In this document: piece by piece, positions 6,757 through 12,974 of the stretch | Position numbering within the stretch: the stretch's first letter is position 1 | How the letters are laid out: the number at the start of each line of letters is the position of its first letter | DNA from: a virus | Direction: 5' to 3' (one strand) | Length of the DNA stretch: 16,725 nt | Virus record (IMG/VR): IMGVR_UViG_3300013099_000164 | The notes under the pieces: generated by a model | What the model was told of the DNA's origin: nothing | The model's database searches: none | What the model saw: only the letters and a program-made list of their open reading frames with translations | Made by a program: the position numbers and the translations under genes

Positions 6757-8517
6757 ATGAAACAACTTTTCTTGTTATTAGCCTTTATAATGTTCGGCAT
6801 TACGATTCAGGCTCAGGAGTGCGGTAGTTATGTAGATCTAGTAGGATCTGGCATTGCCGGAGAAAGTTCTGCTTCCTTAATAATCGATGCAACATCGGTT
6901 GACTCTATTGTAGTAGAGGCCATTTATAAATCTACTACTCAACCATCTGCTGTAAGATTTTGGACCGCTACGGAAGAAGTATTTGTAGAACCAGTCGATG
7001 TTTTAGTTAGTGGACTGTTGGGATCGGTTAATAATGATCCAATTATTGCAAGCGTTTATCGAACAACATTGAGCGCCGCATCGATTGTAAATTTGGATAT
7101 TCTCCAAAACACTCCCGAATTTTTTTCCTTTGCAGCTTACGTATTTTCCCCGAGCCTAGGAATTTCTTCCACGGTCAGCGGGGATTTATATCATGTCTAT
7201 AAGAATGAAGATAACCCATTAGTTACAAACATTCCAATTCCTACTTCAGTAAATTCTCGAAATATTACTATTCGATATGGAATTACTGAATTAAACAATG
7301 ATGAAAGAAAAGCTATATTTACATTCGAAGCAGATGGAACATTGATTGAAAAAGAAGTGTATGCTTGGGATGATGGTATTGGAGAAACAGAATCATATAC
7401 GATTCAAGACGTATTGATTTTGGGTGTTCCTGGAAATGTGGATAAAATTATAATGACCCAAATTTCTCATAATTATGATCATGATGGAACTGGAAGAGGT
7501 GATTCTTGGATTGGAGGAAGAGTAATTGCTGATATTCCATGTGAAAAAGAAAAGAAAGATTCTGCCCTGTTTTGTACATATACTCAAGGGTTTTATGGAA
7601 ATAAAGGAGGGAAAACCTGCTTAGGCGAAACAACTCCAGAAATAATTGCAAGGCTATTAGCCACTGATTTAGTATTAGGTTTAGGAAATAATACTTTTAC
7701 TATATCAGCTGGTAATGTAGATGATGTACTGGGTATTCTTCCAGGTGGTGGACCTTCAGCAGTTCTAAATGGACACGCTACTTATGCTAATCCAGTAGGA
7801 TTGAACATGAAAAAAGGAAAACTAAAGAACACACTATTGGCTCAATCCATTACGTTTGCTCTTAACCTTAGGAATAATCCTGATATGCTTTTATTTAAAC
7901 TCGACCCTTTTACTACTCAGTTTCCGATGGATTGTTCTAGCATAGAAGCTGGGGGAATTCCTGGAAGCGAAAAAGAATTTAAGTTCTCTCAAGCTATTGT
8001 GGATTATCTTGGAGATGATGCAACAATAGGAGATCTGCTAGATCTTGTTAATTTGGCTCTTTCGGGTGGAGACATCGGTACATTATCATTAAGTAATGTC
8101 TCTGATGCTGCAACCCTTGTAAATGAGGCATTTGATGAATGTGTATACGTTACAGTTGAAGCAGAGGAAGAAATACCAGAAGTAGCTCCAGTAGTAGAAG
8201 TCATAGAGGAGGATGAAGGTACTGAAGAAGATGGTGGAACAAAAGGAACAACTGGAATAAATGATATTGAAGCAGGTTCTTTTAGTTTATACCCAAATCC
8301 TGTAGGCGATCAGATGTTTATAAATCTTTCACCTGAAATTAGAAATGTTAAAACTATTTCAATGTATAACGTAACAGGAGCAACTGAAAAGATTTTAACT
8401 GATAATTTTAATGCTAATTCAATACAAATCGATGTATCTGATTTAAATGAAGGAATGTATTTTCTAAGAATAGATGCAGACACCGGAACTGTGGTAAGAC
8501 GCTTTACCGTAAACTAA
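6757..8517 (+). CDS. Secreted T9SS substrate: signal peptide, large Ser/Thr/Gly-rich body, acidic linker and C-terminal Por/T9SS sorting domain
   Basis: N-terminal signal MKQLFLLLAFIMFGITIQAQ. The C-terminal ~80 aa (SFSLYPNPVGDQMFINL...GMYFLRIDADTGTVVRRFTVN) matches the TIGR04183/Por_Secre_tail pattern (LYPNP, GxYxxR, K/R-rich end). The EEEIPEVAPVVEVIEEDEGTEEDGG linker sits just before the CTD. Confidence 0.8.
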   Translation: MKQLFLLLAFIMFGITIQAQECGSYVDLVGSGIAGESSASLIIDATSVDSIVVEAIYKSTTQPSAVRFWTATEEVFVEPVDVLVSGLLGSVNNDPIIASVYRTTLSAASIVNLDILQNTPEFFSFAAYVFSPSLGISSTVSGDLYHVYKNEDNPLVTNIPIPTSVNSRNITIRYGITELNNDERKAIFTFEADGTLIEKEVYAWDDGIGETESYTIQDVLILGVPGNVDKIIMTQISHNYDHDGTGRGDSWIGGRVIADIPCEKEKKDSALFCTYTQGFYGNKGGKTCLGETTPEIIARLLATDLVLGLGNNTFTISAGNVDDVLGILPGGGPSAVLNGHATYANPVGLNMKKGKLKNTLLAQSITFALNLRNNPDMLLFKLDPFTTQFPMDCSSIEAGGIPGSEKEFKFSQAIVDYLGDDATIGDLLDLVNLALSGGDIGTLSLSNVSDAATLVNEAFDECVYVTVEAEEEIPEVAPVVEVIEEDEGTEEDGGTKGTTGINDIEAGSFSLYPNPVGDQMFINLSPEIRNVKTISMYNVTGATEKILTDNFNANSIQIDVSDLNEGMYFLRIDADTGTVVRRFTVN

Positions 8518-8523
8518 AATTAT

Positions 8524-8925
8524 ATGAAAAACGTATTTGTAATAGACATACACAGTGTATTAGACGTGGTGACAAACAGTTCTTCAGAATTGTTTGTTAT
8601 CTCAGACGATACTACAGTCACAGCGGTAGAAGATTTACTTAGATATTTAGTAGACACTTGGAATGAGATGGCTGATAAAGGTGTGTTCGGAAAATGGCAT
8701 CAAGAAAGAGAAACAGTTAAATATGAAAACTGCATGTCTGTACGCTTAATGGATCCAAGCGATGTTGAGCATGATGAGCATGAAAAAAGATATAATTGGG
8801 GCTATGAAGTAGAAGAAAATGTGGGGAAAATTATTATTGAAAGTACTACCGATAATTCAATTCCATGGGAAATCATTGAATGGATTGAATCTGCATTTAG
8901 TGCAAAACGGTGGCATTTAGGTTAA
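8524..8925 (+). CDS. Acidic hypothetical protein, paralogue 1 of a tandem three-gene family
   Basis: Its N-terminal motif VIDIHSVLDVVTNSSSELFVISDD is shared with the next two genes. Confidence 0.6.
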   Translation: MKNVFVIDIHSVLDVVTNSSSELFVISDDTTVTAVEDLLRYLVDTWNEMADKGVFGKWHQERETVKYENCMSVRLMDPSDVEHDEHEKRYNWGYEVEENVGKIIIESTTDNSIPWEIIEWIESAFSAKRWHLG

Positions 8926-8944
8926 ACAATTAAAAAATATAAAA

Positions 8945-9382
8945 ATGAAAATTCCAATTCACTCAACAACTGATTTAATTACTAATTCTTCAACAGTAAT
9001 TTTCACATACAGTGAAAGTTCAGAAGGAGCAGTCGTTTCAATGATCGATGAAATGTTTAAAGCGTTTGGCATTGATAAGAAATGCGAAGATGTTTTTGAC
9101 ACAGTAGTATTAACTGAAAAGTACAAGTATAATGAGACTGAAGATTTAATTCCTGAGGGTGTAGATGGCGATGCTGTCGAAAAACTCTATGATGATGTCA
9201 AATCCGGGAAGGTTCAAAAGCCAGATTGGTTTAATGATATCGAAAGTCACGAAGGATCGTGGGATTACTATACTCCTAGTACTTATCTGCATCTTATTCC
9301 TAAGAAGCCAGAATACGAGAAATTAGCAAGCTTAGTTAAAAACTTTTTATATTCAACAGACCATGAAGCGACAAGAGATTAA
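8945..9382 (+). CDS. Acidic hypothetical protein, paralogue 2 of the tandem family
   Basis: IPIHSTTDLITNSSTVIFTYSE, CEDVFDTVVL, GKVQKPDWFNDIE and STYLHLIPKKPEYEKLASLVKNFLYSTDHE align with paralogue 3. Confidence 0.6.
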   Translation: MKIPIHSTTDLITNSSTVIFTYSESSEGAVVSMIDEMFKAFGIDKKCEDVFDTVVLTEKYKYNETEDLIPEGVDGDAVEKLYDDVKSGKVQKPDWFNDIESHEGSWDYYTPSTYLHLIPKKPEYEKLASLVKNFLYSTDHEATRD

Positions 9383-9854
9383 AATACCGTTCCATTCGAT
9401 GATTGATTTGATCACGAATTCTTCAACAGAAATTTTCATTAATAGCTCAAAGTCTATTGAGCCGGCTAAAGAACTTTTAAGCGAGTTGCTAAAACTTGCA
9501 GGATCATATAAGACTTGCGATGAAGTTTTCGAAGTAAGTTTAACAATGGACACTGACTATTTAGTAGATATTCTCAGAGATCAAATGGAAAATTATGATG
9601 AGGAGAATTATATCAAATTAGGCCTTGATGATCTTGCCTACACAAAATCTTATGAAGTTGTAGAACAATATGTTAACGATGTAATGAAAGGAAAGATAGA
9701 AAAACCAAAGTATTTTGAAGAGATGATAGATGATATGGAAATTGGTATCAGTACATATCTGCATGTAGTTTCAAAGGATTCTAAGTATGATCATTTCTTA
9801 GAAATTCTTGAGAAGCTTTTATATTCACCAGATTATGAAGAAGGTTCCTGCTAA
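9363..9854 (+). CDS. Acidic hypothetical protein, paralogue 3 of the tandem family
   Basis: IPFHSMIDLITNSSTEIFINSS, CDEVFEVSLT, GKIEKPKYFEEMID and STYLHVVSKDSKYDHFLEILEKLLYSPDYEE are shared with paralogue 2. It overlaps paralogue 2 by 20 nt. Confidence 0.6.
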   Translation: MKRQEIKIPFHSMIDLITNSSTEIFINSSKSIEPAKELLSELLKLAGSYKTCDEVFEVSLTMDTDYLVDILRDQMENYDEENYIKLGLDDLAYTKSYEVVEQYVNDVMKGKIEKPKYFEEMIDDMEIGISTYLHVVSKDSKYDHFLEILEKLLYSPDYEEGSC

Positions 9855-9855
9855 T

Positions 9856-10734
9856 ATGATTAAAACAAGAATCTTTCCAGAACATAACTACAAAGGGATC
9901 CATATTAATGGCAAGACTATACGTATTGCTCTAGACCCTAAGAAGCCCATTAGTGAACTACAGTGGCCCGAGTTCTATGATGTAAAGGTAACACCTTACT
10001 GTAAGGGTAATTGCCCATATTGTTATCAAGATAGCCTCTCTACTGTACAACATCCTGATAATATAGTTGAGAAATTTGAATCATTCTTCTCACCTATGAC
10101 AAAGAATCAGAAGCCATTCCAAATTGCCTTTGGAGGTGGTGAACCTACTACACATCCAGATTTTTCTAAACTCATGAAAGTTTGTTATGATATGGACATT
10201 GCTCCGAATTATACGACAAACGGGATGTGGGTTAAAGCAGAAAATCAAGATGAAATCATGGAAACCACAAAAAAATATTGTGGTGGAGTAGCAGTTTCAA
10301 CTCATCCTCATCTAGAAAAATACTGGAAAGCAGCCACTGATGCTTATTTAGAAGAGGGAGTATTTACTAACTTGCATATTATTATAGGGGGGAAGGGATC
10401 TATCGATGATTTCGTAGAAATCTATAAAGAATATCATGGAAGAGTTAAGTATTTTGTGTTGCTTCCGTTAACAGCTCAGGGACGTGCAAATGAATCTTTT
10501 GTTGATTGGGAATATTTTCAAGAATCAGTAGATGGCAGTCCAGCCGACATTGCATTTGGAGCTAACTTCTATCCATTTTTATGCTCAACACCTTCCAGAT
10601 TTAAAGTATCATTGTACGAGCCGGAGATAATGAGCAAATATTTATCTTTAGAAGATATGTCTATTTATAAATCAAGTTTTAGTGAAGAAAAGATTCAAAT
10701 TAAAAATGAAAAGTGGGAAAAAGTATCTGCTTAA
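9856..10734 (+). CDS. Radical SAM enzyme of unknown specificity
   Basis: CKGNCPYC is a CxxxCxxC 4Fe-4S cluster motif. FGGGEPTTHPDF is the GGE SAM-binding motif, and a TNG strand motif follows. I chose ATG 9856, 1 nt after the stop of paralogue 3, over the overlapping track start at 9808. Confidence 0.8.
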   Translation: MIKTRIFPEHNYKGIHINGKTIRIALDPKKPISELQWPEFYDVKVTPYCKGNCPYCYQDSLSTVQHPDNIVEKFESFFSPMTKNQKPFQIAFGGGEPTTHPDFSKLMKVCYDMDIAPNYTTNGMWVKAENQDEIMETTKKYCGGVAVSTHPHLEKYWKAATDAYLEEGVFTNLHIIIGGKGSIDDFVEIYKEYHGRVKYFVLLPLTAQGRANESFVDWEYFQESVDGSPADIAFGANFYPFLCSTPSRFKVSLYEPEIMSKYLSLEDMSIYKSSFSEEKIQIKNEKWEKVSA

Positions 10735-10757
10735 CTAGATTTCTTGAATATATATTC

Positions 10758-10883
10758 ATGAAAAAGTTTAATTATACTTATATAACTACTAATTTAAAAA
10801 ATGGAAAGAAATATGTCGGGGATCATTCAACAGATATGGAGCTTAAAACTTTTTACAAACTCGGATATATAAACTATAAATGA
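10758..10883 (+). pseudogene. Truncated GIY-YIG endonuclease remnant (N-terminal motif only, 41 aa, then TGA and TAG)
   Basis: NYTYITTNLKNGKKYVGDHS matches the GIY-x10-YIG motif (compare I-TevI GIYQIKNTLNNKVYVGSA). No continuation is found in any frame, and a 128-nt untranslated gap follows. Confidence 0.35.
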
Positions 10884-11011
10884 TAGAAATTATGAAAGAC
10901 GTATTTGGATAGATTAATCAAAAATTAGTTATTATCACCAGGAGAAACTTAAACCCTGGTTATCAAGCTGTTCATAAAAATCATAAATATATAAATAAAT
11001 CAGTTATTTAT

Positions 11012-11653
11012 ATGAATCATCAAAGAGTTTATGACTCTATAATCCAAAAAGCAAAATCCGAAAATAGAAAAAAGAATGGAGAGGTTTATTATGAAACTCA
11101 TCACATCTTACCCCGTTCTATGAATGGAGGAGACGAAGAAAATAATTTAGTGTTATTGACGGCAAAAGAGCACTTTGTTAGTCATAAATTATTACTATTC
11201 ATACATCCATTAAATGAATCCATGAAGCATGCATTTCACATGATGTGTTATTCAAAAAATGGAGACTATATACCATCAGGTAAAGATTTTGAATACGCGC
11301 GTATTTTAATAAGTAATTCACTGAAAGAATCTTACCAAGGTGAGAATAATCCCATGTATGGCAAAAAACATTCTAAGGAAGCAATTCAAAAAATTGGGTT
11401 AAAGAGTAAAGGAAGACGTCACTCTAAAAAATCAAAAGAAAAAATGGCGTTAAGTAAAATAGGAAAAAATAATCCTATGTATGATCAACCTGGATATTTC
11501 ACAGGTCTTACTCGTTCTGATAAAACTAAACAAAAAATAAGTGAAAGTCTTAAAATGGTTCTTAAAAAAGAATGTGAATATTGTCATAGGTTTATATCCC
11601 CTAGTAACTATAATAGACATACAGATAAATGTAAATTAAAAAATATATCATGA
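11012..11653 (+). CDS. HNH homing endonuclease with two NUMOD3 DNA-binding repeats and a C-terminal CxC...H Zn motif
   Basis: HNH core ETHHILPRSMNGGDEENNLVLLTAKEHFVSHKLL. NUMOD3 repeats NPMYGKKHSKEAIQKIG and KKSKEKMALSKIGKNNPMY. The TGA stop overlaps the next gene's ATG (ATGA). Confidence 0.85.
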   Translation: MNHQRVYDSIIQKAKSENRKKNGEVYYETHHILPRSMNGGDEENNLVLLTAKEHFVSHKLLLFIHPLNESMKHAFHMMCYSKNGDYIPSGKDFEYARILISNSLKESYQGENNPMYGKKHSKEAIQKIGLKSKGRRHSKKSKEKMALSKIGKNNPMYDQPGYFTGLTRSDKTKQKISESLKMVLKKECEYCHRFISPSNYNRHTDKCKLKNIS

Positions 11654-11994
11654 CATAGATTAAACTATACATTATAACACGAAGAGATTTGTTACCCGGA
11701 GTACAAATGTTACAAGCTGCCCATGCCGGGATAGATTTTCAACACCAACACCCAGAAATTGCAAAGCAATGGAATAATGAGTCAAATTATCTTATTATCT
11801 TGTCAGTTGAGAATGAAGAACAGCTATTATTGTATTTAGAGAAATTTAAGTACTACAATCTTAAAACAACAATCTTTAGAGAACCAGACATTGGCAATGA
11901 AATAACTGCTATAGTAGTAGAACCCAGTCAAAAAACGAAAAAACTAACTAGCAAATTACCACTTGCTTTAAAGGAAATTAACCATGGCAATTGA
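11650..11994 (+). CDS. PTH2-family peptidyl-tRNA hydrolase; the full-length reading needs translation of an in-frame TAG at codon 3 (11656-11658)
   Basis: Translation from ATG 11650 gives M-T-(TAG)-IKLYIITRRDLLPGVQMLQAAHAG.... This aligns with the PTH2 N-terminus ([27 protein letters not shown] in archaea, [25 protein letters not shown] in humans), and the downstream core (QW...II-SVENEEQL...PD-G-EITAIVVEP) is also conserved. If TAG is not translated, only truncated starts are possible (TTG 11689 or ATG 11707) and both lose the conserved first beta-strand. Confidence 0.6.
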
Positions 11995-12403
11995 GATCGA
12001 GGTCGGGAAACCCCTTAAAAAAATACAATATCAGAACGAATTCAAAGTTCTTGTTAAATTTAGATATAGTGACGCATCTGAAGTAGTTATGGTAGATGCT
12101 GCAGATATGTTTCAACTAAAGAAATTTATTAAAATGTTGGATGATTGCTTAGACGCATATCCAGAAGGAAAGGGTGTGTTAGATACGTACAACCATGTCG
12201 AGAATTTCTGGTTATATGTTGAAACTTATGACTCTTTGAGTCATGAACAACAAGCACAACTTGATGAAATGGCAGAGGGTGCAGAAATTTATCTAGAATG
12301 GCGAATTGATCCAGATGAAGGAGATCAGCACCAGATTGATAGTTACACATTAACATTTTTTGATAGTAACGGAATTGAAAGAGAAGTAGAAATAAAAAAA
12401 TAA
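11984..12403 (+). CDS. Acidic hypothetical protein (139 aa)
   Basis: The ATG overlaps the end of the PTH2 gene. Confidence 0.55.
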   Translation: MAIEIEVGKPLKKIQYQNEFKVLVKFRYSDASEVVMVDAADMFQLKKFIKMLDDCLDAYPEGKGVLDTYNHVENFWLYVETYDSLSHEQQAQLDEMAEGAEIYLEWRIDPDEGDQHQIDSYTLTFFDSNGIEREVEIKK

Positions 12404-12510: not shown

Positions 12511-12849
12511 ATGGAAACAATAGAAAAAATATATGACGTAAGAAAATTTAAAGCAGAAATTAAAGTAGCTGCAGGATATCAGAAATTCTTAAAAAATCAA
12601 AGAAAAACTGTAAAACTTGTAGGTAAAAGAGAACTTGAGCCTTGGATGGCAACAATGAAACATTATCATAATCGTCAAGATTTAGCTGCAATGTATGTAG
12701 CTTATGGAGTAATGAGAGGCAAAGATTTAGACGAACAAATGAAAGCTCATATCTCAAAAAGAAATGAGTATGCTATGAGTTCTGCAAAAGAAAAAGTAGA
12801 AAAATTGCTTAGTAAATACAAATTAGAAAAAGTAGAAGAATCAGCGTAA
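12511..12849 (+). CDS. Hypothetical protein (112 aa, Lys-rich)
   Basis: ATG start. A TATTTTTG (TAnnTTTG-like) box lies about 55 nt upstream. Confidence 0.55.
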   Translation: METIEKIYDVRKFKAEIKVAAGYQKFLKNQRKTVKLVGKRELEPWMATMKHYHNRQDLAAMYVAYGVMRGKDLDEQMKAHISKRNEYAMSSAKEKVEKLLSKYKLEKVEESA

Positions 12850-12888: not shown

Positions 12889-12961
12889 GTCCGATTAGCT
12901 CAGTTGGCGGAGCGCTGGATTCTAGACCCGGAGGTCGTCGGTTCGATCCCGACATCGGACG
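12889..12961 (+). tRNA. Amber suppressor tRNA, anticodon CUA (Sup-CTA); 73 nt, no encoded CCA
   Basis: The cloverleaf is canonical. Acceptor GTCCGAT/ATCGGAC is 7 perfect bp. D-arm GCTC-AGTTGGCG-GAGC. Anticodon arm CTGGA-TTCTAGA-CCCGG has U33 and anticodon C34-U35-A36 at 12922-12924, G37, and an A31-C39 mismatch at the stem base. Variable loop AGGTC. T-arm GTCGG-TTCGATC-CCGAC. Discriminator G73. Confidence 0.8.
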
Positions 12962-12974
12962 CAAAATTTAGAAT

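Follow-up and report, generated by a model that had tools for sequence, protein, structure and literature searches.

How does a phage make a complete hydrolase from a gene whose third codon is a stop, and what ties that gene to a suppressor tRNA lying close by? These questions are raised by the virus record IMGVR_UViG_3300013099_000164, a stretch of 16,725 nucleotides (the window), which carries a gene resembling the PTH2 type of peptidyl-tRNA hydrolase and a tRNA with the anticodon CUA. The original prediction, made from the sequence alone, placed the hydrolase at 11650-11994 and took the neighbouring tRNA as a hint of a functional link. It missed the most telling feature of the locus, a conserved amber codon (TAG) with which the PTH2-like gene begins in frame. 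The reading that we favour, and hold to be moderately probable, is that large phages have a conserved module for amber suppression, to which the gene and the tRNA belong and in which synthesis of the hydrolase is gated by suppressor activity.

An in-frame amber codon at the start of the PTH2-like gene

The PTH2-like coding sequence extends from 11650 to 11994 on the + strand and has 114 codons plus a TGA stop (11992-11994) when codon 3, a TAG, is taken as sense (M-T-(TAG)-IKLYIITRRDLLPGVQMLQAAHAG...FREPDIGNEITAIVVEP...). With the stop shown, the product of the open reading frame (ORF) at 11650 is MT*IKLYIITRRDLLPGVQMLQAAHAGIDFQHQHPEIAKQWNNESNYLIILSVENEEQLLLYLEKFKYYNLKTTIFREPDIGNEITAIVVEPSQKTKKLTSKLPLALKEINHGN. 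The ATG start (11650-11652, +) forms an ATGA overlap with the TGA stop (11651-11653) of an upstream ORF for an HNH homing endonuclease, and it is the sole in-frame ATG upstream of β-strand 1 and the conserved core. The amber codon itself occupies 11656-11658 (+), is followed by ATT, and is the proposed suppression gate.

Under the standard code, the longest PTH2-like ORF begins only at TTG 11689 and β-strand 1 is lost. The alignment to the Pfam family PF01981 (PTH2) begins at residue 4, which is 5' of this first standard-code start. Public gene calls for the same phage give a PTH2-like product of 95 or 101 amino acids, and database proteins starting with 'MTQI...' are calls of the same leader TAG under code 15. 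Since standard-code calling drops the first β-strand of the window gene (95-101 instead of 114 amino acids), the existing 5' annotations are likely wrong. At the level of sequence, a complete PTH2 fold needs decoding of the leader UAG, as the gene has no other usable start.

Conservation of the leader amber codon

A set of 90 loci from IMG/VR and GenBank, 70 of them with distinct protein sequences, was analysed with ARAGORN and in-frame translation. An ATG followed by an equivalent TAG was found in 61 of the 70 distinct loci, with a gap of one codon in 35, two codons in 14 and three codons in 6, and the TAG directly abuts the core 'KLxVITRRDL' on its 5' side. The five GenBank homologues from huge phages (39-60% identity) all start with M-x(-x)-TAG-I, namely MK-TAG-I (LR756500.1), MS-TAG-I (LR756501.1), MNN-TAG-I (LR745206.1), MT-TAG-I (LR756504.1) and MKN-TAG-I (LR756502.1). 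A pseudogene or a sequencing error was rejected as an explanation, because the TAG recurs in dozens of independent assemblies, three of them from this phage.

By comparison, a TAG within the first 12 codons was seen in 22 of the 529 remaining ORFs of these loci that have at least 100 codons, and four of the 22 are displaced 5' ends of PTH2 genes. Elsewhere in the loci TAG occurs at 1.41 per 1000 codons, and five internal TAGs were counted over the 90 PTH2 gene bodies. Comparison of the leader TAG with the background ORFs gave a Fisher p of 1e-54, which is uncorrected for phylogeny and shared ancestry. Of 18 clusters formed by single linkage at 60% identity, 13 have the leader TAG, which is kept even between proteins that are 37% identical (L010/L090). 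What is encoded from the ATG to the TAG is free to vary (K, T, TH, NN, KDT, KKPFYY and others), and L018, a GC-rich relative that is not recoded, has ACC (Thr) at the position of the leader TAG. The spread of the TAG over these clusters and down to 37% identity, the variable leader residues and the ACC of L018 all speak against simple inheritance, and selection therefore appears to act on the stop codon itself, and not on an amino acid.

A second, internal TAG is located in the conserved body of three homologues (LR756501.1, L012 and L014). As to the residue that may be inserted at UAG, the alignment has E, D or V opposite the only internal TAG in LR756501.1. Because these TAGs sit inside the gene bodies, TAG is probably decoded in the related phages. 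Such use of TAG as a sense codon by relatives would be expected if the gene were an ordinary housekeeping PTH2 of a tRNA-rich phage, placed near tRNA genes like other genes of translation, its TAG being one more sense codon of the Gln type in a recoded genome and having no part in regulation; PTH2 is also common in jumbo phages, often near tRNA arrays. On the other hand, a codon that is rare elsewhere in the loci is found within the first codons of most PTH2-like genes, and it is retained at low identity despite changing flanking residues. A housekeeping role of this kind is already disfavoured, and we rate it as very improbable.

The ATG and TAG could also constitute a terminating mini-ORF of two or three codons, the hydrolase being made by re-initiation or from a non-canonical start, which would be a form of tuning independent of the suppressor. 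The post-TAG codon is ATT, a rare bacterial start, in 34 of 62 loci, and in mycobacteriophages it is GTG, which is the annotated start. Lambda bar minigenes of such size provoke peptidyl-tRNA drop-off, so that the idea is thematically apt. Many loci, however, have a post-TAG codon that is not a start (GTA, GTT, ACT, AAC, AGC or GAA), and an ATG, GTG or TTG separates the TAG from β-strand 1 in just one of 62 loci (L092, a false positive). A mini-ORF would also leave the tight linkage to tRNA(CUA) unexplained, and we consider it improbable. As for the sequence context of the TAG, the next base is a purine in 60 of the 62 loci (47 with A, 13 with G), and in E. coli a purine after TAG is a context favouring suppression.

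Similar leaders, of the MNT-TAG-I or MK-TAG-V type, were seen in two other ORFs near PTH2-like genes. The ORF in L003 (6998-7588) is unrelated to PTH2, so the amber leader may be wider in distribution, and in L079 (3204-3986) an inserted gene may have become joined to a displaced 5' end of PTH2.

Linkage to an amber suppressor tRNA and to protein X

The tRNA in the window (12889-12962, +) begins 895 nucleotides past the PTH2 stop. It was detected by ARAGORN with the amber-suppressor anticodon CUA and what appears to be an ordinary cloverleaf, and the general Rfam tRNA model matched it from end to end with 56.8 bits. The label 'Pyl' assigned by ARAGORN derives from the anticodon alone. A Pfam scan of the 21 larger ORFs of the window, including the PTH2-like gene, found no pyl genes (pylS or pylBCD).

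The adjacency that the original prediction had regarded as a hint turned out to be conserved. In 53 of the 70 distinct loci, or 53 of the 63 that have any tRNA (seven have none in flanks of 4-6 kb), the tRNA closest to the gene is a tRNA(CTA), and 61 of 62 CTA tRNAs are on the PTH2 strand. The linkage is seen in 15 of 18 clusters at 60% identity and extends to the cluster C mycobacteriophages, so the co-occurrence in related genomes that had been proposed as a check was indeed found. Among the 222 flank tRNAs only 62 are of the CTA type, and its position as nearest neighbour is a further point against an ordinary housekeeping PTH2. The second commonest flank tRNA near the PTH2-like gene (L005-L098) is tRNA(CAT), with 41 of 222.

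Three arrangements were observed. In the first, the tRNA is located 44-210 nucleotides 5' of the PTH2-like gene; in the second, which is that of the window, it is about 0.5-1.5 kb downstream; in the third, it begins 1-72 nucleotides past the stop codon. The third arrangement is that of a 'KLYVLVRKDL' subgroup, in which the leader TAG is mostly absent. There are 61 unique sequences among 84 linked tRNAs, and they resemble many isotypes; the anticodon is conserved, and not the tRNA body.

A reverse sample was also prepared, in which 76 tRNA(CTA) loci were chosen solely by the pattern of the CUA anticodon loop and T-arm. A PTH2-like gene was present in 15 of the 76 (20%), on the same strand and within 2.5 kb in 13 of the 15, and the leader TAG was again frequent. 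The hydrolase thus sampled looks like an accessory in a subset of suppressor-bearing phages, and the subfamily, when it occurs in such phages, seems nearly always to sit with the suppressor.

Between the two genes of the window, a third component was found. 'Protein X' (12511-12849, +) is a basic protein of 112 amino acids with four predicted helices and the conserved motif FLKNQRKT...KH..NR..L..MY.AYG..RGK, and it accompanies the PTH2-tRNA pair in 47 of 99 loci. An ORF of 139 amino acids (phrog_8562; 11984-12403, +), which overlaps the 3' end of the PTH2-like gene by 11 nucleotides, lies between PTH2 and protein X only in this phage. The order on one strand is accordingly PTH2-like gene, non-conserved ORF, protein X and tRNA-Sup(CUA). 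No terminator-like sites were found between 10700 and 13400, and a scan for sigma-70 promoters gave 13 sites against 16 expected, the probable Bacteroidota host having different promoters.

Pth counters the products of TacT-type GNAT toxins, and the enzyme could by analogy have an anti-defence function, which the original prediction had put forward next to the recycling of drop-off products, undoing the work of host tRNA-blocking toxins, for example GNAT toxins that acetylate aminoacyl-tRNA, with no part in suppression. The grouping of phage PTH2 with RNA-repair functions by Iyer et al. 2021 (PMC7824862) also speaks for such a role. The neighbourhood, however, holds nothing that points to defence or counter-defence, and both the leader TAG and its specific association with tRNA(CUA) would be left without an explanation. 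Among the explanations considered we find it the least probable. The mini-ORF, housekeeping and anti-toxin readings all fit the data less well than a suppression gate or a feedback loop built on it.

Family assignment and predicted fold

The product with the TAG read through matched PF01981 with 36.8 bits against a gathering cut-off of 23 (E 5e-9, profile positions 1-114 of 115), which bears out the PTH2 at 11650-11994 that had been predicted. It also matched phrog_1866 (labelled unknown function, E 1e-17) and phrog_3668 ('hydrolase') in PHROGs. In a sequence search of the PDB with the window protein, archaeal and human Pth2 were the sole meaningful matches (1rzw, E 1e-5), and the family profile matched the Pth2 chains 24bt, 2zv3 and 1rzw with E values of 1e-8 to 2e-9. 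An AlphaFold2 model based on 30 homologues, with a predicted local distance difference test score of 95.4, has four strands and four helices in the Pth2 order. With this model, Foldseek retrieved the archaeal and human Pth2 structures 2zv3, 3erj, 1q7s, 1wn2 and 1xty with template modelling (TM) scores of 0.7-0.8 and a probability of 1.0. By its Pfam and PDB matches and its predicted fold, the window gene encodes a PTH2-family protein with the PTH2 fold.

The view that PTH2 is unusual in phages does not hold for large phages. The window protein matched 233 GenBank phage records, including 207 mycobacteriophages with the annotation 'peptidyl tRNA hydrolase', and the family comprises 1,552 clusters at 50% identity (profile against 1.84 billion representatives, E <= 1e-10). 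Moreover, PTH2 in jumbo phages was described by Iyer et al. 2021 (PMC7824862). Phage PTH2 is therefore already known.

Divergence of the active-site motifs

The motif QAAHAG is present in the window protein, as had been predicted. In alignments of the family, the TRRDL strand keeps its first Arg and its Asp, and Q..H(A), E-P-D, a Trp and a Thr are likewise invariant or nearly so. The second motif that had been read as conserved, 'D-x-G...T', is not the canonical DAGxT, since the family has (R/x)EPD(I/L)xxxxT at that place. Aligned with the solved Pth2 chains, 'EPD(I/L)' is opposite 'DAGxT', with a four-residue deletion and a shorter loop. HMMER pairs the invariant Glu of the family with the Asp of DAGxT, and an acidic residue may thus persist, with a different motif and loop length. 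The Lys of 'GK' in the β1-α1 loop, found in all five aligned PDB Pth2 chains, is absent: the window protein reads G-V there, and Y, V, A, L, Q and others occur across the family. In the S. solfataricus Pth2 the Lys of 'GK' is Lys18 and the Asp of DAGxT is Asp86, and both are reportedly catalytic. The alignment that the original prediction had recommended for the catalytic residues therefore shows the canonical 'GK' and 'DAGxT' replaced.

The scores against the NCBIfam equivalog models of Pth2 are far below the cut-offs (NF003314, 30.3 bits against 126; TIGR00283, 25.2 against 82). Since the score is so low for both models and 'GK' and DAGxT are replaced, the window protein is best placed in the PTH2 superfamily as a member of a large phage subfamily, and not as an equivalog of archaeal Pth2. 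With canonical Pth2 (PF01981; 2zv3, 3erj, 1q7s and 1xty) it shares the α/β fold (TM 0.74-0.80) and the length, as well as the strand R-x-D-L, the helix motif Q..HA, the Trp and, at the C-terminus, the strand T-A-[IV]. Unlike canonical Pth2, to which identity is only 21-28%, the phage subfamily has an unconserved 'GK' Lys, EPD(I/L)xxxxT in place of DAGxT, and scores under the equivalog cut-offs. Esterase activity on tRNA-linked substrates can reasonably be inferred. In the literature searched, which was incomplete, no report of hydrolysis or of pth(ts) complementation was found for the phage subfamily.

The same arrangement in cultured phages

The pairing recurs in many unrelated big phages, and cultured mycobacteriophages are among them. 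In Bxz1, a standard-code phage of Mycobacterium smegmatis, the PTH2-like gene (gp154) has an in-frame ATG-TAG-GTG, of which the GTG is the annotated start. A tRNA(CTA), annotated as 'tRNA-OTHER', is located 306 nucleotides after gp154 and is the first downstream tRNA, ahead of over 20 further tRNA genes in a row. In Myrna and ScoobyDoobyDoo the 5' end of the PTH2-like gene reads GTG-TAG-GTG, and a tRNA(CTA) is located 130-180 nucleotides downstream. The tRNA(CTA) coordinates in these cluster C phages are 9657-9729 in L100 (Bxz1 gt155), 3463-3534 in L101 (Myrna gene 86) and 3514-3587 in L102 (ScoobyDoobyDoo gene 80), and the labels given to the amber-suppressor tRNAs of the cluster vary among 'tRNA-OTHER', 'tRNA-Ser' and 'tRNA-Pyl(cta)'. 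The mycobacteriophage genes called 'peptidyl tRNA hydrolase' by SEA-PHAGES (Bxz1 gp154 and about 200 cluster C genes) resemble the window gene in subfamily (40-42% identity, E about 1e-16 to 1e-22), in the adjacent tRNA(CTA) and in the start-TAG motif at the 5' end. They differ from it in that their annotations begin at the post-TAG GTG and draw no tie to the amber tRNA, and in their actinobacterial host with the standard code. Because the arrangement is found in Bxz1, Myrna and their relatives, it is testable in an isolated phage and M. smegmatis, and it offers a possible explanation for the suppressor tRNAs of standard-code phages.

Two other named phages were compared. The Prevotella phage Lak-A1 (L103) has a tRNA(UUA) of the ochre type (3242-3314) about 700 nucleotides from its PTH2-like gene, which has no leader TAG. 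The jumbo phage XacN1 encodes CUA suppressor tRNAs (PMC5852040) and, like the window phage, a PTH2-family gene, ORF295. That the XacN1 suppressors target this gene was considered and rejected, as ORF295 is a canonical PTH2 lacking a leader TAG. In contrast to the window gene, it has the canonical GK and D-N-G-T-T, belongs to another subfamily, and has no annotated tRNA within ±9 kb.

A model for an amber-gated hydrolase

Under the gated reading, the ribosome would initiate at ATG 11650 and reach the UAG at codon 3. If release factor 1 (RF1) won there, only a dipeptide would be made, whereas decoding of the UAG by the charged phage suppressor tRNA would give the full PTH2-fold protein of 114 residues. 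Hydrolase output would then follow suppression activity, that is, charged tRNA against RF1, and not transcription alone. The enzyme would most probably cleave the ester bond of peptidyl-tRNAs or N-blocked aminoacyl-tRNAs that accumulate under stop read-through, with sources such as read-through into 3' ends, drop-off and rescue of stalled ribosomes. In this way tRNAs would be released, perhaps with the suppressor among them, and the load on the host Pth would be eased. We infer the decoding of the TAG, its role as a gate, the enzymatic activity and the substrate alike.

Several findings weigh against this model. Apart from the leader or leaders of PTH2, no real gene in the 16.7 kb has an in-frame sense TAG, and the region is therefore essentially compatible with the standard code. 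Two small ORFs (2026-2247 and 2348-2572) seem to end in TAG, where read-through would add about 75 and 6 codons, respectively. The leader TAG is missing in 9 of the 70 loci, including members of the 'KLYVLVRKDL' subgroup, and the GTG directly after the TAG in mycobacteriophages could be an ordinary start. Since the canonical 'GK' and 'DAGxT' are unconserved and replaced in the phage subfamily, the substrate may differ. Only about 20% of the sampled suppressor-tRNA loci carry the gene, so suppression can do without it, and the family members of Xoo-sp13 and ZPAH1 have no nearby tRNA.

A related possibility is a feedback governor similar to that of prfB, in which the PTH2-like enzyme would deacylate aminoacyl- or peptidyl-tRNA(CUA) and the leader UAG would report the level of charged suppressor. 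Removal of charged suppressor would create a negative loop with a set point for read-through, and regeneration of free suppressor a positive loop with a sharper code switch. The gene for RF2, prfB, is autoregulated through an in-frame UGA at codon 26, and the PTH2-like gene likewise has an early stop codon in a gene of the stop-decoding machinery. The linkage is specific to tRNA(CTA) and not to general tRNA arrays, it is present even in standard-code mycobacteriophages, where global recoding is no aim, and the altered active site would permit a non-canonical substrate. Against such a governor, the linked tRNA bodies are very different, which speaks against recognition of one particular tRNA, and by analogy with prfB we offer it as a tentative idea that is rather unlikely. 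A gate with recycling and a prfB-like feedback are closely related and are computationally indistinguishable.

It is also conceivable, at low probability, that the PTH2-like protein, protein X and tRNA(CUA) make up a circuit that senses its own state and by which, during infection, UAG would be given its meaning or have it flipped. Made only via UAG, the enzyme would in turn target esters of the suppressor tRNA, or else ribosomes that pause at UAG, and the feedback would control the switch between standard and recoded decoding. If true, this would answer how recoded phages time their code change, and the circuit would work even in standard-code mycobacteriophages, where the PTH2 leader may be a principal target of the otherwise unexplained suppressor tRNA.

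Comparison with known decoding systems

The resemblance of the amber-gated gene to prfB is that an early in-frame stop in a gene for termination or decoding ties synthesis to the decoding of that stop. The two differ in that prfB works through a +1 frameshift and responds to its own product, whereas the stop of the PTH2-like gene would be read by a tRNA, and its feedback is hypothetical. The code-change modules of stop-recoded phages, described in a preprint by Borges et al. 2021 (10.1101/2021.08.26.457843), consist of a suppressor tRNA, an aminoacyl-tRNA synthetase as well as a release factor. As in the window, a phage suppressor tRNA is clustered with genes for translation factors, and in-frame stops delay expression until suppression is on. 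The code-change genes themselves are written in the standard code, whereas the PTH2-like gene would itself have the recoded stop as its gate, invariably placed at the very 5' end of the gene.

No hydrolase or Pth is mentioned by Borges et al. (10.1101/2021.08.26.457843), and no paper joining PTH2 with suppressor tRNAs in phages was found in the literature searched, which was incomplete, so that a prior description is possible. Since no paper found makes this pairing and the code-change modules were described without a hydrolase, protein X, the leader with its proposed amber gate and the gene's specific tie to tRNA(CUA) appear to be new. For the question of how recoded phages switch decoding, and of what is needed beyond the suppressor tRNA, the locus provides a concrete candidate component: a hydrolase with translation apparently wired to amber suppression, and a partner, protein X.

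Invasion of the gene by a homing endonuclease

In the window, the PTH2 gene has been invaded in its 5' part by a homing endonuclease with NUMOD3 and HNH domains (11012-11653, +; Pfam NUMOD3 63.6 bits, HNH under the cut-off). An older 5' end of PTH2 is displaced to 10880-10972 (+), has its own leader TAG at 10910-10912 (MIEIMKDVFG-TAG-INQKLVIITRRNLNPGYQAV) and is fused in frame to the HNH ORF. The endonuclease is inserted just past the codons for 'PGYQAV(Q)' (window 10880-11715). After it, a diverged replacement 5' end (11650 to about 11715, MT-TAG-IKLYIITRRDLLPGVQMLQ) restores PTH2 and retains ATG-ACA-TAG.

Homologues of the endonuclease are located at the same place in L006, L007/L019 and L020. 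The design with a displaced 5' end was also observed in L006 (1930-3049), L019 (3217-4327) and L008 (4169-5330), and in L008 a different ORF is inserted at the same PTH2 site. In alleles that bear the insertion, 'PGYQAVQ' is changed to PGVQMLQ, AGQQMLQ or IAQQIVQ, as would be expected if that stretch were the cleavage target. A short ORF immediately upstream (10713-10883, …KKFNYTYITTNLKNGKKYVGDHST…) resembles by eye the N-terminal part of a GIY-YIG endonuclease, and may be a decayed second homing endonuclease beside the HNH gene.

Host and other features of the window

All genes of the window are on the + strand, and the G+C content is 34%. A megablast search of the whole window against GenBank phages gave no match, and the closest relatives are uncultured phages of 0.46-0.74 Mb. 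A protein of 586 amino acids (6757-8517) has at its end a C-terminal sorting domain of type IX secretion (Por_Secre_tail, 55 bits). Because a protein with this sorting domain is encoded in the window, the host of the phage is probably a member of the Bacteroidota.

A protein of 811 amino acids (3242-5677) showed matches to the Major Vault Protein shoulder (102 bits), a Vault_3 repeat and Band_7/SPFH, and such a vault-like protein is unusual for a phage. At 971-1035, ARAGORN reported a 65-nucleotide 'tRNA-???' with a four-base anticodon (ccag), which is under the Rfam tRNA threshold and may be a false positive, degenerate or of a frameshift type. Past the window end, a contig of the same phage (L228, ERZ27227323 k141_3222629) encodes a TROVE (Ro60-like) protein of 544 amino acids (7953-9587), followed by a cold-shock-domain protein and a dCMP deaminase, and the TROVE protein is a further gene of the RNA-quality-control type in this phage.

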